Source: an uncultured delta proteobacterium (lineage in GTDB: Bacteria > Myxococcota_A > Polyangia > Polyangiales > Polyangiaceae). Taken from it: a DNA stretch of 64,000 nt. The DNA lies in the NCBI GenBank assembly GCA_963716725.1, contig CAVQUB010000013.1, positions 32,001 to 96,000 on the forward strand, in the 5' to 3' direction. The notes beneath the pieces are model-generated. The model searched no databases and was not told the DNA's origin. It saw only the letters and a list, made by a program, of their open reading frames with translations. This document shows positions 16,213 to 64,000 of the stretch, piece by piece. The translations under genes and the position numbers were made by a program. Each line of letters begins with the position of its first letter. Within the stretch, counting starts at the first letter, position 1.

Positions 16213-16375
16213 CTAGCTATCCCCCGCGCAGCCTTGACTCGCCGAACGCAGACGGGGCTGACGCGGGGCGATGTATTTGGCGTTCAAGACCGGCGCCTTC
16301 TCCCGCTGCTGGGCCGCGGTCCCGTCGCCCTTTTGGCCTTTCGGCCGGCGCTGACAAGGAGCACGTGGTGCTGTT

Positions 16376-19662: not shown

Positions 19663-21249
19663 CACCAGCAGCAACGCCGCTACTGGAGTGGACCCCGATC
19701 CCGTGGTCCGGCAGCCGCATCCGCCATCGTCACCGGACTCGCCTTTGGGCGCAGCGCCGCCGCTCGACGTGCCGCCGGCCGACGCGCCGCCGCTCGACGT
19801 GCCGCCGCTCGACGTGCCGCCGGCCGACGCGTCGGGCGCGTTGCCCGCGCTGCCCGCGCTGCCCGCGGATCCGGCGATGCCCCCGCCCCCGGCAGTTCCG
19901 CCACTGGCGCCGCCAGCACCGCCGACGCTGCCGCCGCCGCTGCCCCCGACTCCGCCGTCGGGGGTCGAGCCGCAGACCTCGTTTCCCTTCTTGATCGTGA
20001 TCGAGTCGATGACGCTGTTCGCCTGAGGGAACGCGCCCCAGGTCTCGATCTTCATGGTGTCGTTCTGGATGTCGACCAAGAGGTAGTGGTGCTCGTCGGT
20101 GCACTTGGCGCGCCCCGCGGTGGTGCCGCAAAACAGCTTGGGGATGGTGAAGGCCCCGGCGCCGCCGCTCACGTAGTAGACGGTGCCACCAGCGTAGTTG
20201 CTGGCGCCGACGGAGCAGGCGTTGCTGGAGCCGGGGGTACCCTTGGTCGCGCAAGCGCTGGGTTCGAAGCGCTCGTACCAGTGGTTGTGGCTGGTGAGCA
20301 CGGCGTCGACGTGGTGTTTGTCGAAGATCGGCACCAACGCGGCGTTCTGGTTGGCTTCGTTGGGCGGATGAGAGATCGAGAACGACGACTTGGTCGTGTA
20401 GATGGGCTTGTGGAAGTACACGAACTTCCACTTCTTCGGGTTGTCGGTCAGCACCGTGTCGAGCCAGGCCGCCTGGGTCGCGAAGGGGATGCTCCCGCCC
20501 TTGAAGCTGTCGGTGGAGAGCGACACGAAGATCGCGTTGGCGTAGGTGAAGAAGTAGTAGTCCTCGGTGTTGCTGCCGTTGGGGCCCGTCGAGCGCGGCA
20601 GCGCGAAGATCTGGTTGTAGTTGGCGCCGTCGCCCGAGCCGGGACCGGTGTCGTGGTTGCCCATCGAGGGCAGGAAGGGGATGGTCTTCGCGATGGGAGA
20701 CGTCCAGCCGAGCAGCTTGAGCCACTGATCGATCTTGTCACCGTCGATCACCAAGTCTCCGCCGTTGAGCATGAACGCGGGCTGGTGCTTGGCAGCTTGC
20801 GCCATGATCTGTGGCCAATTGTCGCCTCCGCCAAAGATCGGATCCGGGCGGTTGTCGGCGAGAAAGGCCAGCTTCACGCTCCCGCAATTGGGGTCCGCTG
20901 GCGGCCCCGTGACGAAGCTCGCCTCAGCCGTGAATCCGTCGGCCGTGCTGCCGGCAATGTAGAAGTACTTGGTGCTCGGCGTCAGACCGGTGAGCTCGAC
21001 TTCGTGGATGTAGCCGAGCCCGGCGTTGGCCAGCGTCGACTTCGCGGTCACCGTCTTCGTGTACGCACCCGAGGCCGTTCCGAGCTGAACCTCCGCAGCC
21101 GTGGGGCCGGTGGTGTGCCACGCGACCGCCATGCTGTTCTGGGGGTCCGCCGTGTACGAGAGGCGGGCGTACTGGGGCGCGGCCAAAGCCGATCCGGCCA
21201 CGGTCATGCACCCCACAAATGAAATGGCAGCTAGCCTGCGTCGGCTCAT
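19618..21249 (-). CDS. Purple acid phosphatase family metallophosphoesterase with FN3 domain and MYXO-CTERM
   Basis: GDLV, GNHD, FHKP, SHNHWYER; Gly-rich linker; GGCGCR...TM...RRRR. Confidence 0.9.
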   Translation of the reverse strand: MSRRRLAAISFVGCMTVAGSALAAPQYARLSYTADPQNSMAVAWHTTGPTAAEVQLGTASGAYTKTVTAKSTLANAGLGYIHEVELTGLTPSTKYFYIAGSTADGFTAEASFVTGPPADPNCGSVKLAFLADNRPDPIFGGGDNWPQIMAQAAKHQPAFMLNGGDLVIDGDKIDQWLKLLGWTSPIAKTIPFLPSMGNHDTGPGSGDGANYNQIFALPRSTGPNGSNTEDYYFFTYANAIFVSLSTDSFKGGSIPFATQAAWLDTVLTDNPKKWKFVYFHKPIYTTKSSFSISHPPNEANQNAALVPIFDKHHVDAVLTSHNHWYERFEPSACATKGTPGSSNACSVGASNYAGGTVYYVSGGAGAFTIPKLFCGTTAGRAKCTDEHHYLLVDIQNDTMKIETWGAFPQANSVIDSITIKKGNEVCGSTPDGGVGGSGGGSVGGAGGASGGTAGGGGIAGSAGSAGSAGNAPDASAGGTSSGGTSSGGASAGGTSSGGAAPKGESGDDGGCGCRTTGSGSTPVAALLLVSGLALARTRRRRRD

Positions 21250-26156: not shown

Positions 26157-26210
26157 GACCCTGGGACGACCCTGGGAAGTGCCCGGAGGGGCAAGTCCCT
26201 GAAGAGGGAC
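26157..26210 (-). repeat. Two nested copies of the 27-bp hairpin mini-element
   Basis: Reverse complement GTCCCTCTTCAGGGAC[TTGCCCCTCCGGGCACTTCCCAGGGTC]GTCCCAGGGTC-GT = 27+27 bp. Confidence 0.75.
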
Positions 26211-30106: not shown

Positions 30107-30759
30107 CCTTCTCCGGCGATCAGCTTTCCGCGGATCAGCCTCTCAGGAAAAAAGAACGGCGAAGCTCTCCGGAGTCCGAACCCGGCTCACCCGAAACAAC
30201 GAGCGCCCAGACCGACACCACGACCGCGGGGGATCACGACGGAGGGTGACGGCCTACACCCCCGGGTCGAACCGCTCTCGGCCACGAGCTTCCGCGTGGA
30301 ATTCACAGCCAGCGCCACGCTCCGCGACAAGCTCGATCACGCCCGGAACCTCCTCAGCCACGCCGTGCCGAGCGGGGATCTCGCGGCCCTTATCGAGCGG
30401 GCCATCGACCAGCTCATCGCCGTCGAGACGAAGCGCCGCTCGGGCGCGGGCAAGCCGCGCAAGCACCGCGAAGTGAAGCCGGGCTCGCGCCACGTGCCGG
30501 TGGAGGTCCAGAGCGCGGTGCGGGAGCGGGATTGCAACCGGTGCACCTTCGTCGATGCCGAGGGGCACCGCTGTTCTGAAAAGCAGTTCTTGACCATCGA
30601 GCACGTCGACCCTTACGCGATGGGAGGGCCAACGACAGCGGATAACTGCTGTTTGCTCTGTTCGCCTCACAACGCGTTTCGAGCGCGACAAATCTACGGC
30701 GAGCAGCACGTCCGGAAGAAGGTCTCGGAGGCTCGCGCGAGCCGGGGAGCGAGCGGCGC

Positions 30760-30812
30760 GACTGCGGGGACTGCGGGGACTGCGGGGACTGCGGGGGCTG
30801 CGGGGACTGCGG
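30760..30812 (+). repeat. 9-bp tandem repeat (GACTGCGGG, ~6 copies) encoding a Thr-Ala-Gly linker
   Basis: Direct reading. Confidence 0.85.
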
Positions 30813-49351: not shown

Positions 49352-49577
49352 CCGAGAGACGCAGGGACGCGGAGAACGCGGAGCACGCAGGGGGAAATTT
49401 TGGGGTTCGGAGGTGAACTGCGGCGCAGACGCGAGACCGATGACGTGCCGTCAGCGAGGGAGCGCTTCTCGGATGAGAGCGACGGCGACCTGCGGCGCGC
49501 GCAGAACGAGCTCGGCATCCAGCCGGAGGACGCGATACCCGAGCCGCGCGAGTTTGCGGTCGCGCGAGGCATCCGCG
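49235..49577 (+). repeat. Direct repeat copy 1 (kinase 3' end + 9-bp repeats + DUF559 3' end)
   Basis: Aligns by eye with 50140-50483. Confidence 0.9.
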
Positions 49578-49816
49578 GTGGCGCGGGCGCGATGGCAAGC
49601 ACCGTCGACCTCGATGGCCAGTCGAGCGGCAGGCACCAAGAAGTCGACGATCGCATCCCCGAGCACCACCTGCCGACGCACTTCGACCCCGAGCCGCCGC
49701 GCGCGCAGCGCTTCCCACAGCGCGGCCTCCGACCGGGTGGCCTGCTCGCGCATCTCCGCGGCGCGCTGGGCGAGGAGTTCCTGACGACGGAGCTGAGCGC
49801 GTTGACGAGCGAGCAT
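49451..49816 (-). CDS. DUF559 / Vsr-like endonuclease domain protein
   Basis: TRSEAALW...RRQ...VDF...IEVDG..H...RD..L..LGYRVLR; SD GGAGG. Confidence 0.88.
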   Translation of the reverse strand: MLARQRAQLRRQELLAQRAAEMREQATRSEAALWEALRARRLGVEVRRQVVLGDAIVDFLVPAARLAIEVDGACHRARATADASRDRKLARLGYRVLRLDAELVLRAPQVAVALIREALPR

Positions 49817-50063
49817 GGGCACCTCCGAAGACCCGGTGTGGTGGGCGGGCCTCGCGACCCAGGGCGCACGATCTGTGACGCGCCGCTTGCGAGTGCTTCC
49901 GGGCGCGCATGCGCGTTCACTCGAGACCTCGCGTCTCAACTCGCCACGCGGCGCGGCGCGGAGCGTGCGCCGACGAGCGGGGCCCGACCGCCACGACGGG
50001 CCGAGGCGTCATGCCTCCGCTCGTCACGACCTTCGACGACGGTCCGATTTCGCAAGCACGCCC

Positions 50064-50137
50064 GTCTTCCCCATTCGGGCAAAGCCCGAATTTGGGGAAG
50101 ACCGACGCCGCGCAGCGGCGGCGAGTTGGGGCAGCAA
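50064..50137. repeat. Conserved hairpin module copy 1 (putative terIS-like end)
   Basis: GTCTTCCCC-ATTCGGGC-AAA-GCCCGAAT-TT-GGGGAAGAC ... GCGAGTTGGGGCAG. Confidence 0.7.
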
Positions 50138-51327: not shown

Positions 51328-51751
51328 CGCGGCAGCCGAGTTGCTGACCACGGAGCTGAGCGCGTTGACGAGCGAGCATGGGTGCCTCCGAGGCACGACA
51401 CGCTCACTCGGTCGCGCCGAGCGAGCACAGCTGCATCAATCCCCCACGACGCCGCGTTCAAGAGTGGCGCGCGAGGGCTCGCCGACTGCGCGCCGGAGCG
51501 CTGATTGTGCGGGTCGTGCACAAGCGCCCACGAGCTGACTTCGCGTGATGCACGTACACGCCGTCGAGCACGAGAGCGTGGCCGTGGACGTTCAGTCTCA
51601 AAGCACCGTCCGTCCTCTGCACCGCGACCACGCCGCCGGTGTATGCTCTCGTGACGCTTGCGATTCCGAGCTCGCGCTTCGCGCGCCAGCGCAGCGAGCG
51701 GTCCACCTCCGCCATGAACGCGCTGACCACTTCTGCGCAGAGCTTCCGGTC

Positions 51752-51778
51752 GTCCCCCGTCGGGGACTTCGCAGCGTC
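51752..51778 (+). repeat. 27-bp hairpin mini-element
   Basis: GTCCCCCGTCGGGGACTTCGCAGCGTC-GT; adds 9 codons in GYD/RK. Confidence 0.85.
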
Positions 51779-52030
51779 GTAGCCGAGCAGCGCACGCAGC
51801 CCCCAGGGCAAGGAGCAAATCCAATGGCGGATCCGCACACGGGGCAGAACTCGCTCCTCCAAATGCACGGCCATGTCCGCCATGCGTCGCCCGACACAAG
51901 ATGGGCAAAAGCCGCGCTTTTTGCACGAAAACGCCACGAGGTCGGAGTAACCGCAGTCACGACACACGAGGTGCAGACAACCTCGCTCGAGCTGTCCACA
52001 CCCTAAATACTCCTCGAACTCCTTCACCAC

Positions 52031-52055
52031 GACGCGCTGCGTGACACCCGACGGG
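52031..52055 (-). repeat. Divergent 27-bp mini-element split by IS4 insertion (remaining 2 bp at 53531-53532)
   Basis: Rebuilt ACCCCGTCGGGTGTCACGCAGCGCGTC-GT; adds TPSGVTQRV between RF and VVK. Confidence 0.65.
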
Positions 52056-53522
52056 CTCATGATTGATCGGATCCCATCTGGGACCGGGCAGCTCGGAAGC
52101 CGATCTCGTAGTCGAGGAGCTTCTGGTAGCCCCGTCCTAACGTTTGCCACCCGGGTGCGCCGTTGTTCTTCAGATGCCCGCCGAGTCGCGCGACAGCGAA
52201 TAGCGCTTGCTCAATGGTCTGCGGGACGGCCGGGAGGCGGAGCTTGAACTTTATGAGGAGCAACTGGGGCTCACTCAGGATCGTTGTTGCCGGTTGCTCG
52301 GGTGCGACGCGGGCTAACGAGCGCATGAGCAACAGGCGCCAGGCGATGGGCAGGAACACGGCGAGCGCGTTGCTCAGTGCCTGATACGACTCGAGCTGTC
52401 GTTTCTCGAGAGAACACCCTTGCTTGAGTGCCTTGAAGAACTCTTCGATCACCCACCGACTGCGGTAACAGTCCACGACGGTCGCGAGTTCGGCGACGGT
52501 GTCAATGGGTTCGGTAGTGAGCAGCACCCACTCGACCGACGGCTCGCCTTCTGGTGGTTGGAGTTCCCAGACTCGAACCACGTTGAGTTCGATGCTGCGC
52601 GTCTCATGTCGAGTGTTGCGGGGGCGCAGCACAGTCAAACGTTTGCCTGCCACGGCGACCTCCGCGCTCCGGGCGTTGCGAGACGGGTGCTCTTTTGCAG
52701 CATGCGCGCGACTGCTCGGTTTCCTCGATGACACCGAGATCGTGCGAAAAAACTGCGGTTCGAGCGTTGAGATTGCACTGCGCAAGCAGATGCCTATTTC
52801 CTCAGTTACTCGGTCGTGAGCCGAACGGATGACGTAGCGCGCACCGAGTTCCTGCGCCTTCGCCAGGACCTCGAAAATGTCCGCTTCGCGGTCCATCACG
52901 TGAATGAGCGCGCTGCCGGGGCAGCGTGCATGGACGGCCTCGAGCATGGCCGGCCAGCGCAGTGATTCGCGCTCGGGGTCTCTCCGACTGACAGACCGGC
53001 GGCGCCCGCGTCCACCCTTGTGTACGAGGCGGACGTGTCGCTGTAGACCCAGAACTCCGAGTGGCACTCGCTCCTCGCCGGGAAGCACGGCCAGCGCCAC
53101 GTGTGCGAGAAACCCCTGGCTGCCGCCGGACGTGACGCCCAACCCAGCTCGCCGACTGGCGCCGCCGAGCGATACTTCGGTCGTATCGTGCGCGACGATA
53201 CACAGGCCAGCGGAACTCACACGCTCCACCGTCGCCGACAGGTGCGGGTCAAGGATTTGCTCCGCGTCGAACTGCTCGTTGCGCAGGAATCGGTAGACTC
53301 CCTCAAGCTCGGACGGAGTGTCGACAGCCTGCGGAAACCCAACACCGGGCGCCGCCATCAGTTTCTCAGCGAGCCAACCGAGCCTGTCACTGCGCCGCTT
53401 ATCGCCGAGCTGAGAGCCCTCGAACTCGTCCGAAATCGACCGCCCTAACCATTCTGTTGCCGGCATTTCTCCCGTAGATCACACGCGCCGTCCGCTCGCA
53501 ATGAGATGTGTTTGATCATGAG
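52056..53522 (-). mobile_element. IS4-family insertion sequence, 8-bp TSD CCGACGGG
   Basis: Terminal IR CTCATGAT/ATCATGAG; TSD at 52048-52055 and 53523-53530. Confidence 0.9.
52057..53466 (-). CDS. IS4 (Tn5-like) transposase
   Basis: LGDKRRSDRL, HDTT, VMDREAD, YRSRWVIEEFFKALKQGC, PGWQTL. Confidence 0.93.
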   Translation of the reverse strand: MPATEWLGRSISDEFEGSQLGDKRRSDRLGWLAEKLMAAPGVGFPQAVDTPSELEGVYRFLRNEQFDAEQILDPHLSATVERVSSAGLCIVAHDTTEVSLGGASRRAGLGVTSGGSQGFLAHVALAVLPGEERVPLGVLGLQRHVRLVHKGGRGRRRSVSRRDPERESLRWPAMLEAVHARCPGSALIHVMDREADIFEVLAKAQELGARYVIRSAHDRVTEEIGICLRSAISTLEPQFFRTISVSSRKPSSRAHAAKEHPSRNARSAEVAVAGKRLTVLRPRNTRHETRSIELNVVRVWELQPPEGEPSVEWVLLTTEPIDTVAELATVVDCYRSRWVIEEFFKALKQGCSLEKRQLESYQALSNALAVFLPIAWRLLLMRSLARVAPEQPATTILSEPQLLLIKFKLRLPAVPQTIEQALFAVARLGGHLKNNGAPGWQTLGRGYQKLLDYEIGFRAARSQMGSDQS

Positions 53523-53819
53523 CCGACGGGGTGAAGCGCGGCAGGCCGCCGTGCTCTTCGGCCCTCTCCAAGAACGCCGGCCAGTGCTCCGCCACCGTCT
53601 GGTGGAGCACGGTGCTCTCCGGTCGATGGCGGGAACGCGATCGCTCGGACGGTGCAAGCGCGTGTGCGGGATGGCCCACGCCATGCGTGCATGAGCGAGT
53701 CCCGTGCCACGCGGCAGAGCCGCAAAGCCCCTGAGAATTCGTTCGCCCGCAGGCGGCGAAGTGGCGAAGTCAGGTGGCGATCGCCACCCAGGGGCGCGCG
53801 CTCTCTCCCGGCGCAGCCC

Positions 53820-53895
53820 GTCTTCCCCGCTCGGGCGAAGCCCGAGTTTGGGGAAGACCGACGCCGCGCAGCGGCGGCGAGTTGGGGCAGGAAGA
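53820..53895. repeat. Conserved hairpin module copy 2, upstream of HUH transposase start
   Basis: GTCTTCCCC-GCTCGGGC-GAA-GCCCGAGT-TT-GGGGAAGAC ... GCGAGTTGGGGCAGGAAG. Confidence 0.7.
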
Positions 53896-54126
53896 GAGGC
53901 CCGGCGTGGTGGGCGGGCTTCGCGACCCAGGGCGCACGATCTGTGACGCGCCGCCCGCAGCGCTTCCTCGCGCGCAAGCGCCATCGTGATCGGCACCCTG
54001 CTTCCCGTCACCGCGCGGCGTGGCGCAGAGCGTGCGCCGGTTGAGCGCAGCCCGACCACTGCGCCGGGCCGAGGCACCACGAGCCGCGCGTGGCTCAGCG
54101 ACGACACACCAGGCTCGGAGCGACTC

Positions 54127-54250
54127 GTCTTCCCCGCTCGGGCAAAGCCCGAGCTTGGGGAAGACCGCAGGCGCGCACGAGCGCGAAGCGACGCGCTTCG
54201 CGATACTCGAAGGGGTGCGAGGAGCACCTGCGAGTTGGGGCAGGAAGAGA
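54127..54250. repeat. Conserved hairpin module copy 3
   Basis: GTCTTCCCC-GCTCGGGC-AAA-GCCCGAGC-TT-GGGGAAGAC ... GCGAGTTGGGGCAGGAAG. Confidence 0.7.
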
Positions 54251-54545
54251 GCCGGAGCACCCGGTAGCCGAGCCGCCGGAGCGCGCGCTCGCGTCGGGCG
54301 TCCGCGACGCGGCGGTCGCGATGGTACCCGCCGTCAACTTCTATGACGAGCCGACAGGCGGGCACCAAGAAATCGACCACGTGCTGGCCGAGCACCACCT
54401 GACGCCGCACCGGAGCGCCGAGCTTTCCAGCGCGGAGCATTTCCCAGAGAGCTTGTTCGGAGCGGGTGGGCGTGGCGCGCATCTCGGCGGCGCGCTCGGC
54501 GAGGACTTGCTGGCGGCGAAGCTGTGCGTTGGGGCGAGCGGACAT
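54250..54545 (-). pseudogene. DUF559 gene copy 3, 3'-truncated at hairpin module
   Basis: TRSEQALW...RRQ...VDF...IEVDGGYH...LGYRVLRL, then runs into the repeat. Confidence 0.8.
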
Positions 54546-54567
54546 GGTTCCTCCGAGGCCCGGCGTG

Positions 54568-54594
54568 GTCCCCCCCTGGGGACTTCCAAGGGTC
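54568..54594 (+). repeat. 27-bp hairpin mini-element in DUF559 leader
   Basis: Absent from the homologous leaders at ~49834 and ~53902. Confidence 0.9.
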
Positions 54595-54903
54595 GTGGGC
54601 GGGCTTCGCGACCCAGGGCGCAGGCTCTGTGACACGCCGCCCGCTGGCGCATCGTTCAAGAGTCAGCGTTCTTGCTCAGGACGTCGCATCAGGTCGGCAC
54701 GCGGCGTGGCACAGAGCGTGCGCCGGTTGAGCGGCGCCCGACCACTGCGCCGGGCCGAGGCACGACGAGCCGTTCGCAACGGCGCGCGACGACGCTGACT
54801 CTCACGCGCGAGCACCTTCTCGATCTCGAGCGCAAGCACCACGCTCGCGCCGTCGCCTCCGGCCTTGCAGCTGGATCGCTTCGAGCATAGACGGCACGCG
54901 CGC

Positions 54904-54952
54904 GGGAAGGAAGAATGAACTGCCAAAACCCACCGAAGCTCAGGGTACGCGC
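54904..54952 (-). other. Putative oriIS-like end of IS91-like element A
   Basis: GTACCCTGAGCTTCGGTGGGTTTTGGCAGTTCATTCTTCCT shared with 60337-60386; homology stops right after. Confidence 0.65.
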
Positions 54953-55282
54953 GGCGCGTTTCGAGGTCGAGGGGTGGTCGGGAGTGGTCGGAGTAGCTGG
55001 TACTGACGCTGCTCGCCGCTCCGACCCTTCAGGGCGAGGCTGAATGCGCCACCGCGGAGGGACCACCGCCTTGGCGGGGCGCTCGGCGAACCCTCACCCT
55101 CCCCCGAACCCCAGCTCCAACTGCTCGGGCACGCGCAGCTTCTCGCGCTCGAGCGGCGGCGCGCGCGGCCCGAGGCCATGCTCGGCGAGCAGCCGCGTGA
55201 TCGGAGCGCGCGTCGTGGCGACCTCGGCCCAGCGCATCGGACCCGAGCAGCGCGGGCAGGTCTCGACATCGGCCTGGAACAC

Positions 55283-55309
55283 GACCCTGGGAAGTCCCCG
55301 ACGGGGGAC
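55283..55309 (-). repeat. 27-bp hairpin mini-element
   Basis: Adds VPRRGLPRV; the equivalent site in copy B (~60700-60710) is empty. Confidence 0.9.
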
Positions 55310-55469
55310 ATGGGCCAGCATCCATGCCCATCGTTTACGCTGCACCGGTGCGTCGTCCTTCTCGCCAAGTAGCTCGAGCTGGTCGCCGCGGGCGGGCGGC
55401 GGCTTGTTCGCGGTCGCGTCCGCTGGCGGTGTGGGCACGACGAGGCGCCGTCGAGAAGAGTGGCTCGAC

Positions 55470-55496
55470 GACCCTTGGAAGTCCCTGAAGAGGGAG
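55470..55496 (-). repeat. 27-bp mini-element, TCCCT-CTTC-AGGGA stem variant
   Basis: Adds 9 codons after GVLS. Confidence 0.85.
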
Positions 55497-55597
55497 AGCA
55501 CGCCGAAGTACCGCAATAAGTGCCAGCGAGGCGGTGGCACCGCGGCCACCAGACGCGGGATGAGGTCAGCCGGCTCGAAGACCAGCGCGCGTGTGCC

Positions 55598-55624
55598 GCC
55601 CCCCGTCGGGGACTTCCAAGGGTC
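55598..55624 (+). repeat. 27-bp hairpin mini-element
   Basis: Adds DPWKSPTGG within WRD/GT. Confidence 0.85.
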
Positions 55625-55710
55625 GTCGCGCCAGGGACGCTTGAAGCTCAGCTCGAGCTTGCCGTCGGCGCGGCGCGCGAGACGCTCCTGCGAGACGGAG
55701 GGCGCGTGAT

Positions 55711-55737
55711 GTCCCCCGTCGGGGACTTCCAAGGGTC
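55711..55737 (+). repeat. 27-bp hairpin mini-element (consensus copy)
   Basis: Adds DPWKSPTGD between CKY and ITRP. Confidence 0.9.
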
Positions 55738-55926
55738 GTACTTGCAGATTCGCTCCACGCGACGGCGATCCCGTCCGTCGATGGCCTGAGCTGCGTGGAT
55801 GTTGATACCGCGCACCTCCGCGATGGGCTCGTCAATGGCGTCTGCGGCGCGCGGGCGCGCGGTCGGCTCTGGCGAGGTGAGCAGCCGCAGGGGCGGCTTT
55901 CCGGCGCGCTCGCCGCTCACGGAGAC

Positions 55927-55953
55927 GACCCCTGGAAGTCCCCGACGGGGGAT
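55927..55953 (-). repeat. 27-bp hairpin mini-element
   Basis: Adds IPRRGLPGV. Confidence 0.85.
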
Positions 55954-56376
55954 GCCCTGCGCTGCGGCGGCGTAGCAGGCGGCGAGCCCGGGCTCGTCCA
56001 GGGCGAGCTCGGGCGGGGTGTCGTCGTCGCACTCGGGGTCCAGGCTTCGGCCATGCGCACGCAGGATCTTCTCGATGCGAGCCGCGGTGCGCGAGGCGAC
56101 CTCGGCGATGTCCGCGTGAGAAGGCGCGTCGAGCTCCAGGAACTCGAGCGGAGCGCGCGGGTCGTCGTCCTGGTGCACGTACACGCCGTCGAGCACGAGC
56201 GCGTGGCAGTGAACGTTGAGTCGGAGGGCACTGTCTGTTCTCTGCACCGCAACCACGGCGCCGGTGTGACAGCTGGCGACGCTCGCGACGCCGAGCTCGC
56301 GCTTTGCGCGCCAGCGCAGTGAGCGGTCCACCTCCGCCATGAACGCGCTCACCACCTCGGCGCAGAGCTTCCGGTC

Positions 56377-56403
56377 GTCCCCCGCCGGGGACTTCGCAGC
56401 GTC
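56377..56403 (+). repeat. 27-bp hairpin mini-element
   Basis: Same protein site as 51752-51778, loop CGCC. Confidence 0.85.
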
Positions 56404-56677
56404 GTAACCCAGGAGCGCGCGCAGACCCCAAGGCAAGGAGCAGATCCAATGGCGAATGCGTACGCGCGGCAGCACTCGCTCCTCCAAGTGCACGGCGATA
56501 TCCGCCATTCGGCGCCCGACACAGGAGGGGCAAAAGCCGCGCTTTTTGCAGGAAAAAGCCACCAGCTCGGAGTGCCCGCAGTCACGACACACGAGGTGTA
56601 GACAGCCGCGCTCGAGCTGCCCGCAGGTCAGAGGTGACGCCACCTGTGTCATCGGCGCGCGCTGTCCGTAACCTGGC

Positions 56678-57955
56678 TCAGAAGGCGAACGAGAGCGAAA
56701 GGTATCCGCCACCCGCCAACGGTCCACCGTCGACCTTCGGCTTCAGCCAGGTGGTCTTCCGTGTCGATTCGACGTCGTGGATCGACTTTCGCAGCAGTTT
56801 TCGGTTGTGCTTTTCGGCGTAGATTCGCGCGTCGTACTCCGTGAGAAGGTGATCGTTCGGCGCTCCTTCTCCGAAGACCAGTCCAAAGATGGTCAGAGGC
56901 ACTCCGGCGACGAGCAGCGTGAAGCCGCCGGTGAACGCCGCGATGGTCGGCGGATCGTTTCCCTTGAGATTCCCGAATGCCAGGCTAGCCGTTGTGAGGC
57001 CCGCACCCACGACGAGCATGGTGATCCCGCCGTACAGCTGGAACTTGGCGCGGTGGGTCTCGACGTCGTCGAGATCCTTCTCTCCCGTCGCCGCACGATA
57101 CCGACGCACGAACTCGTTCTCCGAGACGAATCCCTGTGCGTCGGAGAACGCGTAGCCGCCATACGGACTAACCCCCACCTTCATCTTCTGCGACTCGTAG
57201 ATCGCCTTCACCTGATCGCTCGCGGATGTCTCGCTGATGCCCGCTGCTTTGGCGACACCGAGCGGGCCCACGTCGTCCTTCTTCGAAGGGTCACGTGGGT
57301 GCACGCCGATGGCGAAGTAGCCGTGGACTTTCTTGCGGTGGAGGACCTTCAGGGCCACGGCGCCGGACGTGCTGCCTACAGAAACGATGTCGACCCCCGC
57401 GCTCGCGTTGGTCTCCTCGCCGGTGGCGTACTCGCCATCTCCGTAGACGATCGACTGCACGTAGCCGTAGCCGCAGGCGTTGCCGCCCTTCTCCGCGCAA
57501 CAGGCGGCGTACTCGGTCGTGTCGGCGCGGACGACCTTCTTCTGCGGGGCGAGCTTGTAGAGGAAGTGCGTCGCGTGGCTCACGTCGGCGCCGAATCCGA
57601 ACAGGCCGAGCGTCGCGCTAGCCTTCGCGCCGACCGCGAGCTCTTCCGCGTCCTCGTACGTAGCGGTCATCGCGAACGTCTTCGCCGGCTCGAGCTTGTC
57701 CGCGCATGGGTTCGGCTGGATGAGCTTCGCGATGGGCTCCCCGGCCTGCGGTGCCGATACGATGATCCTCCCCAGGATCGTATCGTCATCGCTCGGACCC
57801 GGCACGAGGACGTACTCGTCGCCGATGGGCAGCTTCGGTTCGGTCGGCGTGTTGGTCGCGGTCGATCGCGGGGTCGGCGTACTGCCGCATCCTGACGCAA
57901 ACGCGACCAGCACTACCGAGGCGATCATGGCCTGGCTCGTCTTCACCTCTCGCAC
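56678..57955 (-). CDS. Hypothetical lipoprotein with two C-terminal hydrophobic segments (start may be 57928)
   Basis: Lipobox ASGC; ends LSLSFAF. Confidence 0.7.
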   Translation of the reverse strand: MREVKTSQAMIASVVLVAFASGCGSTPTPRSTATNTPTEPKLPIGDEYVLVPGPSDDDTILGRIIVSAPQAGEPIAKLIQPNPCADKLEPAKTFAMTATYEDAEELAVGAKASATLGLFGFGADVSHATHFLYKLAPQKKVVRADTTEYAACCAEKGGNACGYGYVQSIVYGDGEYATGEETNASAGVDIVSVGSTSGAVALKVLHRKKVHGYFAIGVHPRDPSKKDDVGPLGVAKAAGISETSASDQVKAIYESQKMKVGVSPYGGYAFSDAQGFVSENEFVRRYRAATGEKDLDDVETHRAKFQLYGGITMLVVGAGLTTASLAFGNLKGNDPPTIAAFTGGFTLLVAGVPLTIFGLVFGEGAPNDHLLTEYDARIYAEKHNRKLLRKSIHDVESTRKTTWLKPKVDGGPLAGGGYLSLSFAF

Positions 57956-58113
57956 CCTGCACTTTCCGGCGATGATGCTACACGCGGGCGCATAGGTAGA
58001 ACAAGAGGGGGGTAGTTGCGCTTGTCAACCACCTACCGTTCGCAAACCCCGGACTGGCGTGAGGCGGCTGTCAGCCCGGCTTGTCTGACACCTTCCAGGT
58101 TGCGGAGCGCGGG

Positions 58114-60012
58114 CTATTTGAGCGGGACGAGCTTGTCGCCGAGGTGTCGGACGGCGTCGTGGCGCTCGCGGGGTGCGATGGCGTACGTGGCCTCGATGAG
58201 CCTCGCCGCGTGACGGTAGAGGCGCTCTCGATCTTCGGCAGGCTGGGCGAGGAGCGTCTCGACGATGGTGTCGAGCCAAAAGGTCCTCTCCAAGTTGCTG
58301 TCGGTCTCGGTCGCCTTCTCGACGCAGGCGAGCAGAACGCACGCGACGTCGGGCACGTCGCGGAGAGCTTCGCGCTCGACGCGGAGCGGCTCGAGAAAGC
58401 GGTCGCGCGCGTCCATGCGGTTCTTGTAGAGGAGCTCGGCAAAGAACTCGCCTTCGGTCTTCGCTGCGACGTTTTTCACGATGCCGAGCAAATAGCGCGC
58501 ATCAGCGCTGTCGGGAAGGGCGTTTGCAGAGCGTTTTGCCTGGAAGATCGTGAGGCCATCGACGATGGCGTCTTGTGGGTAGCCAGCGATGGCGACGCGG
58601 ATGTTTCGCTCGGGGTCGAGCAGCCGGAGGCGTTCGAAGTAATCGTCGAGCAGCGCGAGCACCTCGGGACGCCGGCGCGCCTCCAGCGTACGGCGCGCGC
58701 GCTCCTGGCGCTCGGCCAGGTCGCGCAGCTCGCAGCGCGCTTGCTCGATCTGCTCGGCGCTGGGAGCGTCCGCGCAGAGGTCGACACGCGAGCGGCCGTT
58801 GCGATCCTTGCGCGGGCGGTGGTTGGTCGTGCGTGCCCAGACCTGGACGACCAAGCCGAGGAAGCGGCGGGCGAGATCGTGGGCTTCGGTCCGCGTGTCG
58901 AGCTCGAGTGGAGGCAAGATCTGAGAGAACAGCCCGAAAGCGCCCTCGACGTGCGCCTTATTTTGCGGGCGCTCGATGGTCGCGCGTATCCGGATCGTGT
59001 CGCCGAGCGCCGCGTCGACCTCTGGTGAATGGTTGGACGGCTTGTTGTCGAGCAGGAGCGCGAGCGGGGTCGCGCCGGTGGTCGCTGTGCCTTGCTCGAA
59101 CGCCTCGACGACAGCGGCGCTGTCCTCCTCGTCGCGCACAGACGTGCCAACGAAAGCGCCGGTGTGTGCGTCCACGTCGAGCTCGAGATTGAAGACGAAG
59201 CGCTGTCCATCGACGACGACGGGCACTTGCATGCTGTCACCGACCCACTGCGCGCCGGGGAGGTAGGTGCGGAACGCGCCACGCAGCGCGAGCTCGTCGG
59301 GGCTACGGCCGACACGAGACGCCGGCTTGCGCCGCCCATGCACCGCGAGAATGCGCCGGACGAGGTCGCGGCCGAACGACAGGTGCAGGTCGCGCCGTAC
59401 GTGCTCGCAGAATTCGAGGAACGAGCCCTGCCAGCGCTCCCAGGCGTCGAGCACGGTCTGAATGTGCAACGTCTCCACGCTGGCCATGTCGGTGTCGGTG
59501 TCGGCACCGGCGCATGCACCCGACGTCGGCGTGCTGGCCGCGGGCACGTCGTCGCCGGCGCTCACCGGTGCGTTGCGGATCCAGTCCTTGAGGGTGCCGA
59601 GCGGGATGCGCGCCGCCTGCGCGAACGCCTCCAGCTCGAGCGAGGCGTGGGTGTGCACCAAGCCGAGCAGGAAGCGCCGAAACTCGTCGCTGTATTGCTG
59701 TCGCCTCGCCCCGCGATCCACGCAGCCGGGATGCGCCATCACGTGGTCGAGCACGCTGCGGGTCACCGCCGCTCCGGCCTCGCTCGGCGGCGTGGAGCAC
59801 TCTTTCGGCGGCCGTCCCGGCGCCCGCGCTAGCGCTGGCAAGGCGGCGGCGATCTTGCCAGCGGCCTCGTAGGCCTGGCTCTTGGAGCAGCCAGCGGCCT
59901 TCACGATCGCATCGACCGGCGGCACCGGCAGCCCGCGCTCCTCGCCGAGCGCGCGCCCGAACAGCAGCACGCCAGCGAGCCAGGCAGGACAAAGCGCGAC
60001 GGAGGCAATCAC
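58114..60012 (-). CDS. Large rve/DDE integrase-core-like protein
   Basis: PGAQWVGD, LLLDNK, PQNKAHVEGAF spaced like a DDE triad. Confidence 0.7.
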   Translation of the reverse strand: MIASVALCPAWLAGVLLFGRALGEERGLPVPPVDAIVKAAGCSKSQAYEAAGKIAAALPALARAPGRPPKECSTPPSEAGAAVTRSVLDHVMAHPGCVDRGARRQQYSDEFRRFLLGLVHTHASLELEAFAQAARIPLGTLKDWIRNAPVSAGDDVPAASTPTSGACAGADTDTDMASVETLHIQTVLDAWERWQGSFLEFCEHVRRDLHLSFGRDLVRRILAVHGRRKPASRVGRSPDELALRGAFRTYLPGAQWVGDSMQVPVVVDGQRFVFNLELDVDAHTGAFVGTSVRDEEDSAAVVEAFEQGTATTGATPLALLLDNKPSNHSPEVDAALGDTIRIRATIERPQNKAHVEGAFGLFSQILPPLELDTRTEAHDLARRFLGLVVQVWARTTNHRPRKDRNGRSRVDLCADAPSAEQIEQARCELRDLAERQERARRTLEARRRPEVLALLDDYFERLRLLDPERNIRVAIAGYPQDAIVDGLTIFQAKRSANALPDSADARYLLGIVKNVAAKTEGEFFAELLYKNRMDARDRFLEPLRVEREALRDVPDVACVLLACVEKATETDSNLERTFWLDTIVETLLAQPAEDRERLYRHAARLIEATYAIAPRERHDAVRHLGDKLVPLK

Positions 60013-60070
60013 GGTGGGAGTACCGGATCTGCCTCCGTCGCTGGACGTTTGTCGATCTAGTTTCGAACGA

Positions 60071-60336
60071 CTATTGCTGTGTAGAGGCCCCGAGCAGCCT
60101 CTGCCCCAGCAGCCACACCTCGGGTACGCCGCCGCGGCTCGTCACCTTGAACAGCTCGAGGCAGCGATCGCGAAGGTCGAGCAGGTCGCTCGCGTCGCGG
60201 CCGGTGCCCGCCTCGATGCGCGCGAGCACCTCCTCGACGCGACCGTAGTAGCGGTCGGCGGGCACGAGCAGTCCGCCGAGCGCGTGGTGGGTGCGCCCGT
60301 GATTGCACCAGTGGATGTGCGCGTCGAGGCGGCGGC
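60071..60336 (-). pseudogene. C-terminal fragment of IS481/IS3-like integrase-core transposase
   Basis: WCNHGRTHHALGG..PADRYYG; cut off by the IS91-like end. Confidence 0.65.
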
Positions 60337-60386
60337 GCGTAGGAGGAACGAACTGCCAAAACCCACCGATGCTCAGGGTACGCGCG
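60337..60386 (-). other. Putative oriIS-like end of IS91-like element B
   Basis: GTACCCTGAGCATCGGTGGGTTTTGGCAGTTCGTTCCTCCT. Confidence 0.65.
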
Positions 60387-60866
60387 TGGCGGTCGGAGGT
60401 CGAGAGGCAGGTCGGGGTGGCTGGCTGAACAGTTGGTTGCCGCTGCTGAGCGTCACAGCGAGGCAGAACGCGCCACCGCGCACGGAGCACCGCCTTGGCG
60501 AGTCCCGCGACGAAGCCTCACCCTTCCCCGAACCCCAACACGAGCTGCTCGGGCACCCGAAGGTTCACGTGTTGACGCGGCGGCGCTCTCGCCCCGAGAC
60601 CGTGCTCGGCGAGCAGGCGGGTGATGGCAGCACGCGTCGTGGCGACCTCGGCCCAGCGCATCGGACCGGAGCAGCGGGGACAATGGTCCATGTCAGCTTG
60701 GAACACGTGGGCCAGCATCCATGCCCATCGTTTGCGCGGCACCGGCGCGTCGTCCTTCTCGCCAAGTAGCTCGAGCTGATCGCCGCGGGCTGGCGGCGGC
60801 TTGTTCGCGGTCGCGTCCGCCGGCGGTGTGGGCACGACGAGACGCCGGCGCGAGGAGTGGCTCGAC

Positions 60867-60893
60867 GACCCTTGGAAGTCCCTGAAGAGGGAG
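60867..60893 (-). repeat. 27-bp mini-element (stem variant)
   Basis: Same site and sequence as 55470-55496. Confidence 0.85.
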
Positions 60894-60994
60894 AGCACGC
60901 CGAAGTACCTGAGGAGATGCCAGCGAGGCGGCGGCACCGCGGCGACGAGGCGCGGGATGAGGTCGGCGGGCTCGAAGACCAGCGCGCGTGTGCC

Positions 60995-61021
60995 GCCCCC
61001 CGTCGGGGACTTCCAAGGGTC
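60995..61021 (+). repeat. 27-bp hairpin mini-element
   Basis: Same site as 55598-55624. Confidence 0.85.
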
Positions 61022-61108
61022 GTCACGCCAAGCACGCTTGAAGCTGAGCTCGAGTTTGCCATCCGCGCGGCGCTCGAGGCGGTCCTGCGCGACAGGTGGG
61101 CGCGTGAT

Positions 61109-61120
61109 GTCCCCCGTCGG
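61109..61120 (+). repeat. 27-bp mini-element truncated by IS4 insertion
   Basis: GTCCCCCGTCGG abuts the IS end; same site as 55711. Confidence 0.75.
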
Positions 61121-62613
61121 CTCAGGATTGATCGCATTTCCGTATGGAATCGAGGGCCATCTGCCACCCCATGCGTAGCAGGAGCAGTTTTTCGTAGCCG
61201 CGTCCGAGGGTGAGCCAGCCCGGCGCGCCGTTGTTCTTGATGTGACCGCCCAGTCTTGCGAGCAACGCAACCGCGTCGCGGACTGTCTTTGGTTTCGGCA
61301 AGCCGCGGGCAGCTGGTGCCTGGTGGAGGAGAGCTAGCTCGGTCTCTGTGAAGACGGCACTGGCGGGCGCGCCGGAGTGGAGCCGATCCATGCTGCGAAG
61401 CCAGAGTAGCTGGCAGGCGATGGGCGCCAGGATGGCGAGTACCTTGCAGAGGGCGTCATACGATTCGACTTGTCTCCGCTCCAGGGAGCACCCGGTCTTC
61501 AATGCCTTGAAGTAGTCCTCGATCGTCCAACGCTTCCGATAGAGGTCGACGACCCGCTCAAGGTCGGTTTTTTGAGCCACTGGTTCAGAGGTAAGGAGCA
61601 CCCACTCGACAGCGGGCTCGCCCGCGGGTGGTGACTGCTCCCAGACCCGTACGACGTTGATTTCGAAGTCCGCTCCTCCCGACTTGGTGTACCGGGTTCG
61701 ACCGAGCGTGATCCTCGTCGATGCGATGCTGACGCGCGCGACCCGTGCGGACCGGTGCGGGTGCTTCCGCCTCCCGTTGGCGCCGCTCGTCTTGAAGTTC
61801 TGTTTTCGCTCGCTGAGCGCCACGTCTCGGTGGACGATTGGGACCAGATCTGCCACCACTTCCCTCAAGTGCCGCGCGTCGCCCTCGTCGTAGACGAGGC
61901 GATCGATTTGCCCAGCCCGAATGATGAATCGGGTGGACTCATCCGCCATGTGGCGCATCAGCTCGAAGAAGTCCGCTTCTGCATCCATCACGTGGATGGC
62001 ACGCGCGGAGAGTTTCGGCGTCCTGGTAGCACTCACCCCGCGCAGCCATCGCTCAGATTCTCGTGATTCCTTGTCGCGCCTGGTCGTTCGGGCTGCCTTC
62101 CGCTTCTGCCATGTCGCTCCGGTGCGCGTATATGTCTCAAGGTGACCGATCCCCAGCGGCACTCCGGTGGTGGCGCAGAGGCACAACGACATGTGTGCCA
62201 TGAATCCCTGTCGGCCCAGCGCTGTCGTGTGTAGGCCAGCCCTGCACGCGTTCCTTCACCCCGAAATTCGACCGTGGTCGTATCGTGAATGAACAGAACC
62301 TCCTTCGACGCTTCGGCTCGCTCCAAAGTTGCTCGCCGATGAGGCTCGAACAAGTCCGCCGCGTCGAACGCATCGTTGTTCAGAAACCGATAGAACGCCT
62401 CGAGCTCAGCGGGAGACTCCAACGCCCGAGGAAACCCAACGGCTGGGTCATGTTCGATAGCCTCCACCACGCGAACCAGTCGCGCGCTGCGCCTCGCATC
62501 ACCCAACTCCGCGCCGTCGAAGTCCCGAGTCAGCCGCTCAAATCGCTTAAACCTAGCCACATCGAGCTTTGATCACGCCCGATCGCTAGATGCAAGATGT
62601 GATAGATCCTGAG
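61121..62613 (-). mobile_element. IS4-family insertion sequence; transposase 61122-62560 frameshifted near 62220; no TSD
   Basis: IR CTCAGGAT/ATCCTGAG; LGDARRSARL, HDTT, VMDAEAD, YRKRWTIEDYFKALKTGC. Confidence 0.87.
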
Positions 62614-62835: not shown

Positions 62836-64000
62836 TCATCTTCCCTGCCGCACCGGCGGCGGGAAGCCGATGTCCCAAATGCGCTCGTGGTTGCCACGCC
62901 AGTGAGCGTGCAGCGCAAAGAGGCCGCGTCGCTCGAAGTACTCGTTGTTGAGCCCCCGAGAAACGGCGCGGACCTTGCTGAGCGCCCACCAGCTCCGTCT
63001 TCGTGCATGTACATCGACGTGCACGAGTGGAGCCGGCACTCCCATTTGCTTCAATCGGTTCACGATGTGCCGCTTGCGCTTCCACTGCTTCAGCAGAAGA
63101 GCGCGCAGGCGACGGCGGAGATGACCGTCGACACGGTCCATTCGAGGGTGATGCTTCCCATCGCAGATCGCGAAGTAGCCGAGCCAACCGCGGAGATAGA
63201 CGTTCACGCGCTGGATGCACTCGTCGAACGACTGCCCCCAGTTGCGCGGCGTAAGCTCCTTCAGCCGTTGCCGAAGACGCTCCCAGGACGACTCCGCCAC
63301 CAGGACGCGGACTGGCCCAGACTTCAGCCGATGTAGCGTCAGTCCGAGAAAAGACCGCGTCTGTGGCTTCGCCACCTTGCTCTTCTCCTTGTTGACCCTG
63401 AGCCGCAAGCGCTTCGCGATGAAGCGCTCGAGACTCGCCATCACACGTTGCCCGGCAAGCTCGCTCCGTACGTAGACATTGCAATCGTCTGCGTACCTCA
63501 CGAATCGATGCCCTCTCGCTTCGAGCTCATGGTCGAGCTCGTCGAGCACGATGTTGCTGAGCAGCGGCGACAGTGGGCCCCCTTGCGGAGTCCCGCGGTC
63601 CATCGCTACCACCAGCCCATCGGGCATCACCACCTTGGCCCTGAGCATCTGTCGGATGAGCGAGAGCACGCGGCAATCCGCGATGCGCTGCTCCAGCCGC
63701 GACATCAGTCGATCGTGGTTCACTTGGTCGAAAAATTTCTCCAAATCGATGTCCACGACCCAGTCGTTGCCGGCTCCCAGATGCATCTTGGCTCGTTTGA
63801 TGGCCATGTGGGCCCCACGACCCGGGCGAAAACCGTAGCTCCAATCGTGAAAGGTCTTCTCGTACTGCGGGCTGAGCACTTGGTGCACCGCCTGCTGCAC
63901 GATCCGGTCGATCACGTTCGGGACTCCGAGTCCTCGCTGACCTCCACTCGCCTTGGGGATCCACACGCGCCGGACATCCCCGGCTCGATAACTCCCGTCC
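62836..64000 (-). CDS. ltrA: Group II intron reverse transcriptase/maturase (5' end beyond window, no endonuclease domain)
   Basis: SYGFRPGR, DIDLEKFFD, GTPQGGPLSPLL, RYADD, GWLGYF maturase X. Confidence 0.95.
   Translation of the reverse strand, partial: DGSYRAGDVRRVWIPKASGGQRGLGVPNVIDRIVQQAVHQVLSPQYEKTFHDWSYGFRPGRGAHMAIKRAKMHLGAGNDWVVDIDLEKFFDQVNHDRLMSRLEQRIADCRVLSLIRQMLRAKVVMPDGLVVAMDRGTPQGGPLSPLLSNIVLDELDHELEARGHRFVRYADDCNVYVRSELAGQRVMASLERFIAKRLRLRVNKEKSKVAKPQTRSFLGLTLHRLKSGPVRVLVAESSWERLRQRLKELTPRNWGQSFDECIQRVNVYLRGWLGYFAICDGKHHPRMDRVDGHLRRRLRALLLKQWKRKRHIVNRLKQMGVPAPLVHVDVHARRRSWWALSKVRAVSRGLNNEYFERRGLFALHAHWRGNHERIWDIGFPPPVRQGR

Follow-up and report, generated by a model that had tools for sequence, protein, structure and literature searches.

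The window, a stretch of 64 kb analysed at its full length, harbours three IS91-family transposase copies on the minus strand, all of them truncated or frameshifted. Fragment A (51546..52056), an N-terminal part, is interrupted by an IS4/Tn5-like element at 52057-53466; copy B (54902..56625), with Zn_Tnp_IS91 and Y2_Tnp domains, is 5'-truncated and frameshifted near 55700; and fragment C (60335..61120), a C-terminal part, is truncated by a second IS4-like element from 61122 onward. Our analysis confirms that a family of 27-bp hairpin mini-insertions, first proposed in a sequence-only reading of this DNA, is a genuine repeat family in the window. Its consensus, GTCCCCCGTCGGGGACTTCCAAGGGTC, has 7 window matches at up to 3 mismatches, compared to 0 in 100 dinucleotide shuffles, and is found at 11 places when up to 8 substitutions are allowed. 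Both nhmmer and a covariance model (filters off) recover the identical 11 complete copies, with the rest of the window at noise. One truncated copy and another split by a nested copy bring the total to 13, while the 12 copies previously counted between 51752 and 61120 are in fact 10 complete and 1 truncated.

Each unit is laid out as a 4-bp GC stem, a 4-nt loop, the invariant tail ACTTCCAAGGGTC and then G plus a pyrimidine; an 11-nt unpaired tail is conserved. GT directly follows every complete window copy on its 3' side, and flanking GT lengthens the stem from 4 to 6 bp. Among the stem variants claimed earlier, CCCC/GGGG, CCCT/AGGG and GCCC/GGGC do occur in the window but an ACCC/GGGT stem does not. 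Similarly, the consensus is indeed free of stops in any frame, yet variants with a T-A stem pair, window copies 55470 and 60867 among them, have TGA in one reverse frame. No stop interrupts any of the six frames in 49 of the 61 variants, which is unremarkable since this also holds for 37% of composition-matched shuffles; frame preservation is a passive outcome of a length of 27 and a GC-rich sequence.

Copy B carries six units: 55283..55309 (minus strand; VPRRGLPRV between LAH and VF), 55470..55496 (minus, CCCT/AGGG stem; LFRDFQGSS between GVL and SSHS), 55598..55624 (plus; DPWKSPTGG between WRD and GTR), 55711..55737 (plus, the exact consensus; DPWKSPTGD between CKY and ITRPP), 55927..55953 (minus; IPRRGLPGV after AAAQG) and 56377..56403 (plus, a tail variant). 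The last occupies the site equivalent to that of 51752..51778 in fragment A (plus, tail variant TTCGCAGCGTC; DAAKSPTGD between LGY and DRK). Fragment C contains 60867..60893 (minus) and 60995..61021 (plus) at the sites equivalent to 55470 and 55598, and the first 12 nt of a copy (61109..61120, plus) at the site equivalent to 55711, severed by the end of the IS4-like element. Thus, IS91 DNA (~3 kb) accounts for 9 of the 11 complete copies; there, the densities of TCGT (10.8 vs 11.4 per kb in the rest of the window) and GTCGT (4.5 vs 3.9 per kb) show no excess of target motifs. As a side observation, orientations in copy B are balanced (3 plus, 3 minus), and no strand bias typical of IS200/IS605 is visible in this one 1.6-kb gene, which speaks against a single-strand HUH reading. 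Outside IS91 DNA, the copy at 54568..54594 (plus), listed before as a filled allele of a family that inserts in genes, turns out to be non-coding and upstream of a DUF559 ORF. Of two copies reported at 26.2 kb, the inner one is complete (26166..26194, minus, GCCC/GGGC stem; placed by the model at 26168-26194), while the outer, intergenic one (26157..26210, minus, CCCT/AGGG stem) is split by it into two parts at 26157-26165 and 26193-26210; comparison with an uninterrupted copy gives 26166-26192 as the inserted 27 nt.

Filled and empty alleles coexist, as had been claimed. Repeat spacings on the two sides of the 55283 site are 5424 and 5397, a difference of 27 bp, with copy C empty near 60706, and the 54568 copy is missing from paralogous stretches at 49829 and 53897 (empty sites near 49837 and 53905). 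An alignment of 120 IS91-family transposase homologues has clean 9-residue gaps at every IS91 copy of the unit, which bears out that the 9 extra residues inside conserved IS91 (HUH, Y2) motifs are lacking in homologues: inserts of this type occur in 5 of the 120, the other 115 being without any, and 10 out of 10 rare insertion blocks of exactly 9 columns are unit-derived. Within this one transposase clade, there are at least 11 distinct insertion sites, and presence of the unit is mosaic among copies B, C, L080 and L027, implying either that the same sites were reused repeatedly or that loss is precise. Copies nested in one another are found at other loci, too, and some members of MITE families contain extra copies. 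Insertion has been both repeated and precise: into paralogues after duplication, into its own copies, alongside itself so that 27-bp arrays arise, and into MITEs, intergenic DNA and ORFs. Together with the fixed 27-bp length and a selected hairpin, this supports the earlier idea of a minimal, non-autonomous and repeatedly inserted unit, which is among the smallest mobile DNA elements seen.

To judge its spread, we scanned species-representative genomes and fetched 114 loci among the matches listed. Good copies are present in at least 101 of these loci from at least 28 MAGs, and by hand count 109 of 114 model matches of at least 29 bits (in 100 of the 114 fetched loci) span exactly 27 nt. Among the matches listed, carriers are mostly labelled Myxococcota, others being Gammaproteobacteria, Bacillota, Natronospirales, Fibrobacterota and Anaerolineales; none of the 28 carrier MAGs listed has a cyanobacterial label. 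No isolate genome with a good copy is among these matches, all carriers being MAGs, so the phylum labels depend on binning, and two MAGs with different phylum labels share an IS91 locus at 100% identity. Copies in other MAGs are mostly intergenic, inside MITEs or in head-to-tail arrays with a 27-bp period (L025, L041, L087, L088). ORFs hit elsewhere include PheRS beta, lipoyl-domain linkers, TPR, ABC-2 and RHS-like ORFs, with housekeeping genes such as PheRS beta hit in frame. Because of these in-frame housekeeping copies and those in intergenic DNA, MITEs and arrays, neither a link to mobile-element genes as such nor a role in disabling selfish elements, both previously suggested, is supported by our data.

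The hairpin is maintained by compensatory change. Complementarity at the sole stem pair that our search pattern left free is retained in 106 of 119 unique pattern matches, and this pair (6-11) covaries (C-G 59, T-A 35, G-C 6, A-T 4). Hairpin stability is not exceptional, with z = -1.3 to -1.7 for canonical copies and weaker values for variants, a point against the element reading favoured below. As for the target, ...CGT^CGG(CC)... is preferred, its left half being identical to the 3' terminus of the unit (..GGGTCGT). Counts over 48 independent flank clusters are C 30, G 35, T 37 on the left and G 44, T 37, C 34, G 30 on the right, where background frequencies are ~0.33 (G and C each) and 0.19 (T). 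Left-flank CGT, found in 30-37 of the 48 independent sites, equals the unit's 3' end, and a 1-2 bp duplication would account for these data as well. The proposal of a 25-bp unit plus a duplicated GT agrees with most junctions, including concordant pyrimidine pairs in 40 of 45 cases among the 48 sites, but breaks down at nested copies: with TT on the left and GT on the right of the nested window copy, simple duplication of a 2-bp GT cannot explain every case. An ambiguity of 1-5 nt at the junctions leaves the precise points of cutting unfixed.

Literature searches found no description of the 27-bp motif, in line with the earlier statement that none was known, and the systems that come nearest to it are cyanobacterial SDRs, REPs and Rickettsia RPEs. 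SDR1-8 of Nostocaceae, reportedly described in 2008, are said to be hairpins of 21-27 nt with compensatory changes that nest in copies of themselves, also occur within mini-transposons and tandem repeats, and have no known enzyme; any claim that our unit is smaller than anything known thus needs qualifying. It resembles SDRs, as so described, in its 27 nt, covarying pair 6-11, nested copies and position inside MITE families. Going by description, however, it differs from them in a sequence that appears to be its own, a constant gain of 27 bp, a target of CGT^CGG and in-frame ORF insertions. Its carriers are MAGs with the label Myxococcota or those of at least five further groups, whereas the parts of PMC5861425 drawn on here report SDRs from Nostocaceae only. 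REPs and REPINs, according to excerpts from PMC3733652 and PMC3116915, are short GC-rich hairpins of high copy number that lie mostly between genes, sometimes in ORFs, and are thought to move single-stranded via RAYT, an HUH enzyme supplied in trans. Our unit shares with REPs the short, imperfect palindrome of the 20-40 bp class, having 27 bp, 13 window copies and the above occurrence across MAGs. In contrast to the REP families tagged GTAG or CGTC, with 8-9 bp stems in the CGTC families (PMC3733652, in part), an alignment of 61 unit variants contains no GTAG and has CGTC solely within the loop and, 11 nt away from the stem, at the 3' junction, and the stem has 4-6 bp together with a conserved 11-nt unpaired tail. 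Moreover, the unit clusters head-to-tail at a 27-bp period rather than in the inverted doublets of REPINs or BIMEs, and the flanking ORFs scanned contain no RAYT gene beside its copies. RPEs measure ~100-150 bp and are not known outside Rickettsia. As such, they differ from a 27-bp unit in MAGs labelled as several free-living groups, albeit they too are palindromic repeats in frame within ORFs whose proteins probably still work (PMC3733652, in part). We also rejected a MITE, given 27 bp (not 50-500), an internal hairpin plus unpaired tail in place of terminal inverted repeats, and flanking dinucleotides that agree mostly but not always where a MITE has a fixed target-site duplication, and a CRISPR repeat, given arrays without spacers and no Rfam family match.

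Ends of IS200/IS605 and IS91/Helitron elements offer a further parallel, as they have a subterminal hairpin and are cut some 10-13 nt 3' of it; these elements insert just 3' of a short, defined sequence and do not regularly create a duplication. Compared to IS200/IS605, our unit has a single hairpin rather than one at both ends, no coding capacity and no Y1 gene among the window and flank ORFs scanned; no characterised HUH transposon end is known to be as simple as a single short hairpin. On balance, we consider it probable that a trans-acting enzyme, which may be of HUH type, mobilises the unit as a non-autonomous, single-stranded hairpin element. It would travel as single-stranded DNA, and the enzyme would recognise the hairpin and cut 3' of CGY both at the left flank and at the right end; the likeliest candidate would be an HUH nuclease, either of the IS200/IS605-RAYT or of the IS91 type. 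No Y1_Tnp or RAYT gene matches among the 37 ORFs of the window, and neither Y1/RAYT nor another recurring transposase is found among flanking ORFs (147 copy-spanning plus 80 other composition-filtered ORFs). The pile-up in IS91 may stem from IS91 being both dispensable and single-stranded during its rolling-circle life, or else from a cis preference of the enzyme, and unit-bearing IS91 copies and MITEs could serve as vehicles between genomes. With a length divisible by three and a GC-rich sequence, genic insertions are read through as 9 extra residues, and they survive in tolerant proteins or dispensable genes.

Alternatively, there may be no dedicated enzyme: during replication, a nascent strand ending in ..GTCGT could switch to another copy, which reads GTCGT at its left flank as well as at its right end, copy one 27-nt unit and return, the hairpin aiding stalling and slippage producing arrays. 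Such a scenario would account for a left flank that mimics the unit's 3' end, and hence for the short direct repeats bracketing most copies, for microhomology of up to 5 nt at the LGY site, for the head-to-tail arrays and for window and scanned flank ORFs without a nearby transposase. Nonetheless, homology shrinks to 0-1 nt at nested insertions and at the GVL and PMR sites, ectopic template switches are rare genome-wide, and an invariant tail with compensatory stem changes across MAGs labelled as different phyla indicates recognition by a protein. To us, template switching seems rather unlikely. Quite unlikely, in our opinion, is that the IS91-family Y2 HUH transposase itself moves the unit, preferentially in cis, so that copies accumulate in and around its own gene. 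While the sites crowded into one IS91 clade, IS91 DNA without excess of targets and a hairpin followed by ~11-13 nt to the cut, reminiscent of IS91/Helitron 3' ends, would favour it, 115 of 120 close homologues have no copy, the window's IS91 3' end has another hairpin and is unrelated in sequence, scanned flanking ORFs of copies from other MAGs include no IS91, and every window IS91 copy is already truncated or frameshifted. Several inserts also sit in conserved motifs, and the one separating CKY from ITRPP, which we take to be the catalytic-tyrosine motif, should impair the enzyme.

Spread via an RNA copy and reverse transcription, as reportedly proposed for cyanobacterial SDRs, appears very unlikely, even though that analogy favours it, the window encodes a group II intron reverse transcriptase (62836-63999), L067 has a group II intron and the hairpin folds well as RNA (-11.2 kcal/mol, without shuffle control): the unit lacks a promoter or any other sign of an RNA copy, it occurs in both orientations relative to host genes, and the RT genes encode ordinary intron maturases unconnected with it. 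Hardly credible, despite the enrichment in window IS91 genes, are a host device disabling selfish elements (copies are also in housekeeping genes and intergenic DNA), a native transposase peptide motif (missing from 115 of 120 homologues) and an adapter or assembly artefact, seeing that copies are contig-internal, that contig names follow several assembly naming styles and that paralogous copies have diverged along with their flanks, 51752 and 56377 sharing tail changes within IS91 fragments 86.6% identical.

Very small mobile repeats have so far, to our knowledge, been documented in one cyanobacterial family only. The defined sequence, target and wide MAG occurrence of the present unit offer a tractable substrate for an enzyme hunt, the more so as the whole 27-bp element fits one synthetic oligonucleotide. 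It also represents a route of protein change by 9-residue insertions, reaching a tRNA synthetase subunit and conserved transposase motifs, and a cause of annotation and alignment artefacts in metagenome-derived proteins. More tentatively, it might belong to a wider, undescribed class of 27-nt 'hairpin plus 11-nt tail' elements: these might be the smallest DNA transposons known, driven by an unrecognised single-strand nuclease, carried between phyla by IS91 and MITEs and continually adding 9-residue loops to proteins, essential ones included, a possibility that we regard as doubtful. Another 27-nt unit, not related to the first, shares its layout, shows a compensatory change in the stem and adjoins it in Natronospirales- and Gammaproteobacteria-labelled MAGs.

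Insertion of the 27-bp unit is precise, repeated and site-preferring; the unit itself is fixed, and selection acts on its hairpin. Searched against the window (67.8% G+C), the consensus gives 7 matches at up to 3 mismatches, as against 0 in 100 shuffles, and 11 at up to 8 substitutions; these 11 complete copies, and no further complete ones, also come out of a profile search and of an unfiltered covariance-model run. Both methods additionally pick up the two halves of a twelfth copy, at 26.2 kb, interrupted by copy 26168 (copies are named by their start coordinates), which makes the two a nested pair. The sequence-only reading had counted two copies at 26.2 kb, which are this pair, and 12 copies at 51752-61120, where our count is 10 complete units plus a truncated one, a 12-nt stump (61109-61120) at the start of an IS4-like element. 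Pfam assigns nine complete units and the stump to one IS91-family transposase gene (Zn_Tnp_IS91 plus Y2_Tnp) that is present as three decayed copies: A, a fragment at 51546-52056; B, 5'-truncated and frameshifted, at 54902-56625 with six units; and C, a fragment at 60335-61120. Copy 54568 lies outside any gene, upstream of a DUF559 ORF, and apart from several further mobile elements and one group II intron reverse transcriptase the remaining window is ordinary Myxococcota-like housekeeping DNA. In an Rfam search covering the window plus 18 loci the only matches were tRNAs and one group II intron; none fell at the unit.

Filled and empty alleles had been proposed to coexist, and they do: repeat spacings flanking copy 55283 differ by 27 bp between B and C, and the stretch upstream of DUF559 occurs in the window in one version with the unit and two without it. 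The anticipated 9-residue indels are equally clear, since every unit of A, B and C stands opposite a clean 9-residue gap in the closest of 120 database homologues (at LGY/DRK, AAAQG/VSV, CKY/ITRPP, WRD/GTR, GVL/SSHS and LAH/VF). Rare insertion blocks exactly 9 columns long number 10 in the alignment of these homologues; all are unit-derived and confined to 5 proteins (4/120 by a regex count), leaving 115 of the 120 without any. Homologues and window copies taken together, this one transposase clade has at least 11 distinct insertion sites. Presence among the IS91 copies is mosaic - LAH/VF is filled in B and in two loci fetched from other genomes (L080, L027) and empty in C, GVL/SSHS is filled in B and C and empty in L080 and L027 - so that sites must have been hit more than once or copies lost precisely. 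L080 (at ~920-950; residues 510-518 of a 564-aa ORF) and L027 also carry a diverged relative of the unit, which has the CCC-CTCC-GGG hairpin of copy 26168, differs in its tail (CGCGAAGCGCG) and inserts RASRCPEGY between PMR and WAEV, where the window copies are empty.

The fixed length noted from the sequence holds beyond the window: among the matches listed, 109 of 114 model matches at 29 bits or more (from 100 of at least 114 loci) span exactly 27 nt, the five exceptions being spans of 24, 25, 25 and 26 nt and one match cut by the locus end. Support for the stem comes from covariation rather than energy; hairpin stability is unimpressive against shuffles. The one stem pair left free by our search pattern is complementary in 106 of 119 unique pattern matches listed (C-G 59, T-A 35, G-C 6, A-T 4), and it is this figure that is unbiased, the covariation table from the unit alignment being biased by locus-derived rows pre-filtered for pairing at pair 6-11. 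At a different stem pair, copy 26168 in the window has G-C in place of C-G. The tail is nearly invariant in the aligned variants. The two outermost 'pairs' form in just 37 and 47 of 61 variants among the matches listed, and this weak pairing fits positions 1-2 being target DNA outside the unit. As for the absence of stop codons in all six frames, it is true of the consensus yet not of 12 of the 61 variants; since shuffled sequences, too, lack stops in 37% of cases, we regard read-through as a passive outcome of length and composition.

Flanks of the 25-nt core, counted over 48 independent flank clusters among the matches listed, favour C (30), G (35) and T (37) on the left and G (44), T (37), C (34) and G (30) on the right, which suggests a target close to CGT^CGG(CC). 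Its left half equals the unit's own end (..GGGTCGT), and the rebuilding of the target at the right junction by each insertion explains the head-to-tail arrays seen among the matches listed, the longest of which hold four units or more. The notion of a 25-bp unit with a 2-bp GT duplication survives in part: of 45 sites among the matches listed that have a pyrimidine both on the left and behind the right-hand G, 40 have the same one at the two positions, which fits a 2-bp or a 1-bp duplication, but the nested copies (flanks TT...GT and CC...GC) speak against it. These flanks, a junction ambiguity of 0-5 nt in filled/empty pairs and substitutions between paralogues mean that the exact cuts cannot be fixed. 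Hairpin loops as targets were considered and dropped, stems of at least 5 bp occurring at 13.5% of 74 sites versus 5.7% of 2452 control CGTC sites, a mild excess only. Nor was IS91 hit for a wealth of target motifs, their densities being equal to those in the rest of the window; its excess of units probably reflects dispensability together with the single-stranded intermediates that IS91 forms in rolling-circle transposition, or else action in cis of an IS91 enzyme. On a related note, both IS4/Tn5-like elements in the window (ORFs at 52057-53466 and 61122-62201) start CTCA(T/G)GATTGATCG directly after CCCG(A/T)CGG (52045-52065, 61109-61135), and in copy C the insertion point falls within the unit's hairpin. 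Target preference of insertion sequences for hairpins is known from REPs, and the IS4/Tn5-like element may have one for unit-type hairpins.

The species-representative genome collection was scanned once with a pattern that fixes 17 bases, yielding at least 114 loci (designated by L and a number), and by model score good copies occur at no fewer than 101 loci in at least 28 MAGs. Among the matches listed, 13 loci fall short of 29 bits, being chance matches or doubtful ones (L049 is borderline at 27.9 bits); all 6 isolate genomes fall in this group. Counted by hand from the hit and score tables, and with taxon labels that depend on binning, the carriers among the matches listed comprise 12 MAGs (72 loci) labelled Myxococcales, Polyangiaceae, Kofleriaceae or 'Deltaproteobacteria', 5 Gammaproteobacteria, 4 Bacillota or Clostridiales, 3 Fibrobacterota, 2 Natronospirales, 1 Anaerolineales and 1 Phycisphaerales; G+C of the loci displayed ranges from 49 to 69%. 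Over 1263 bp of IS91 locus, L080 (Polyangiaceae MAG) and L100 (Phycisphaerales MAG) are 100% identical, reflecting either a binning error or very recent transfer. BLAST of a plasmid collection with dimer and single copy, and of a phage collection with the dimer, produced nothing convincing: the top match, 24/27 at E = 2 in an ORF of a Haloprofundus plasmid, has one extra base in the core and was treated as chance.

Most copies among the matches listed lie between housekeeping genes, e.g. between secA and a NUDIX gene, and at 11 or more loci the unit lies within a supported ORF. In PheRS beta the encoded VPRRGLPG aligns with an 8-residue gap in solved structures, in an E2 and an E3 the unit occupies linkers after lipoyl domains, and further carriers are two TPR proteins, an ABC-2 permease, an fn3/Ig protein, RHS-like ORFs and IS91. 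The unit is therefore not tied to mobile-element genes, as had been supposed from the window. Some units sit within MITE-like repeats of ~130-200 bp, certain members having an extra unit that others lack. Two such families, ~200 bp and ~170 bp, were seen in Myxococcales and Polyangiaceae MAGs: family 1 (L001, L008, L033, L045, L094, L109), whose inverted ends begin CTAGAGC and are flanked by CTAG, and family 3 (L005, L006, L018, L036, L039, L060, L065, L096, L099).

MAGs labelled Natronospirales and Gammaproteobacteria hold the unit as the middle of a common ~81-bp block (L077 at 973-1053; also L078, L067, L068, L043 and L010, with L016 in the block alignment). Its right-hand neighbour there, at six loci, is an unrelated 27-nt stretch built in the same way, with a 6-nt loop closed by a 5-bp stem (TGTAC/GTACA) and a tail ~10-11 nt long; in L043 the stem reads TGTGC/GCACA, a compensatory change. 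In L077 and L078 the block reads through, in a linker after a lipoyl domain; in L043 (~1001-1027) the unit, with a CCCA/TGGG stem, is in frame in a YD/RHS-type repeat (YDAD-DPWKSQTWD-GDMT).

How the unit moves may be envisaged as follows. It would travel as single-stranded DNA, mobilised in trans by a hairpin-recognising nuclease, most likely an HUH enzyme. Against this stand the lack of any such gene near the copies - by Pfam, neither a Y1/RAYT gene in the window nor a recurring partner transposase in the window or the scanned flanks of the fetched loci - and the occurrence of both orientations in one gene of the window. A conserved IS91 3' end unrelated to the unit also counts against it and rules out the unit as a solo IS91 end. 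Enzyme-free template switching on GTCGT microhomology is a rival, as is an RNA route of the kind reportedly suggested for SDRs. Copies in housekeeping genes and between genes contradict the idea of a host device that disables selfish elements.

Among known elements, those nearest to the unit are cyanobacterial SDRs, REP/REPIN elements and Rickettsia RPEs (on REPs and RPEs, PMC3733652 and PMC3116915). With SDRs the unit has in common their hallmarks but not the host; no SDR was found outside Nostocaceae (PMC5861425). From REPs as they are defined it departs in tag, stem length and doublet organisation. The literature searched held no occurrence of the motif or of two encoded peptides, and nothing on the unit under 27-bp in-frame palindromic insertions, smallest mobile elements or myxobacterial REP/RAYT. 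To our minds, it is clearly of interest for how small it is, for how widely it is spread across labelled phyla and for having a defined target.

Other features of the window deserve mention. About three diverged copies of a gene for DUF559 (Vsr-like endonuclease) lie at 49454-50008 and 53445-54659, all of them between non-coding flanks that are conserved, and a palindromic repeat of ~78 bp occurs at 50060-50137, 53816-53893 and 54123-54200; this has the look of a small unit in its own right, mobile or duplicated. Between B and C, two minus-strand ORFs of coding-like composition (56681-58024, 448 aa; 58117-60141, 675 aa) have no Pfam match at E <= 0.001, the larger matching rve (integrase core) weakly at E = 0.006. 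A group II intron reverse transcriptase/maturase (RVT_1 plus GIIM; 62836-63999, minus strand) runs off the window end. Two long-arm tRNA genes (15941-16029, 16126-16214), 90% identical, lie 185 bp apart, and short tandem repeats occur at 19728-19838 (period 15 bp) and 30751-30812 (period 9 bp).
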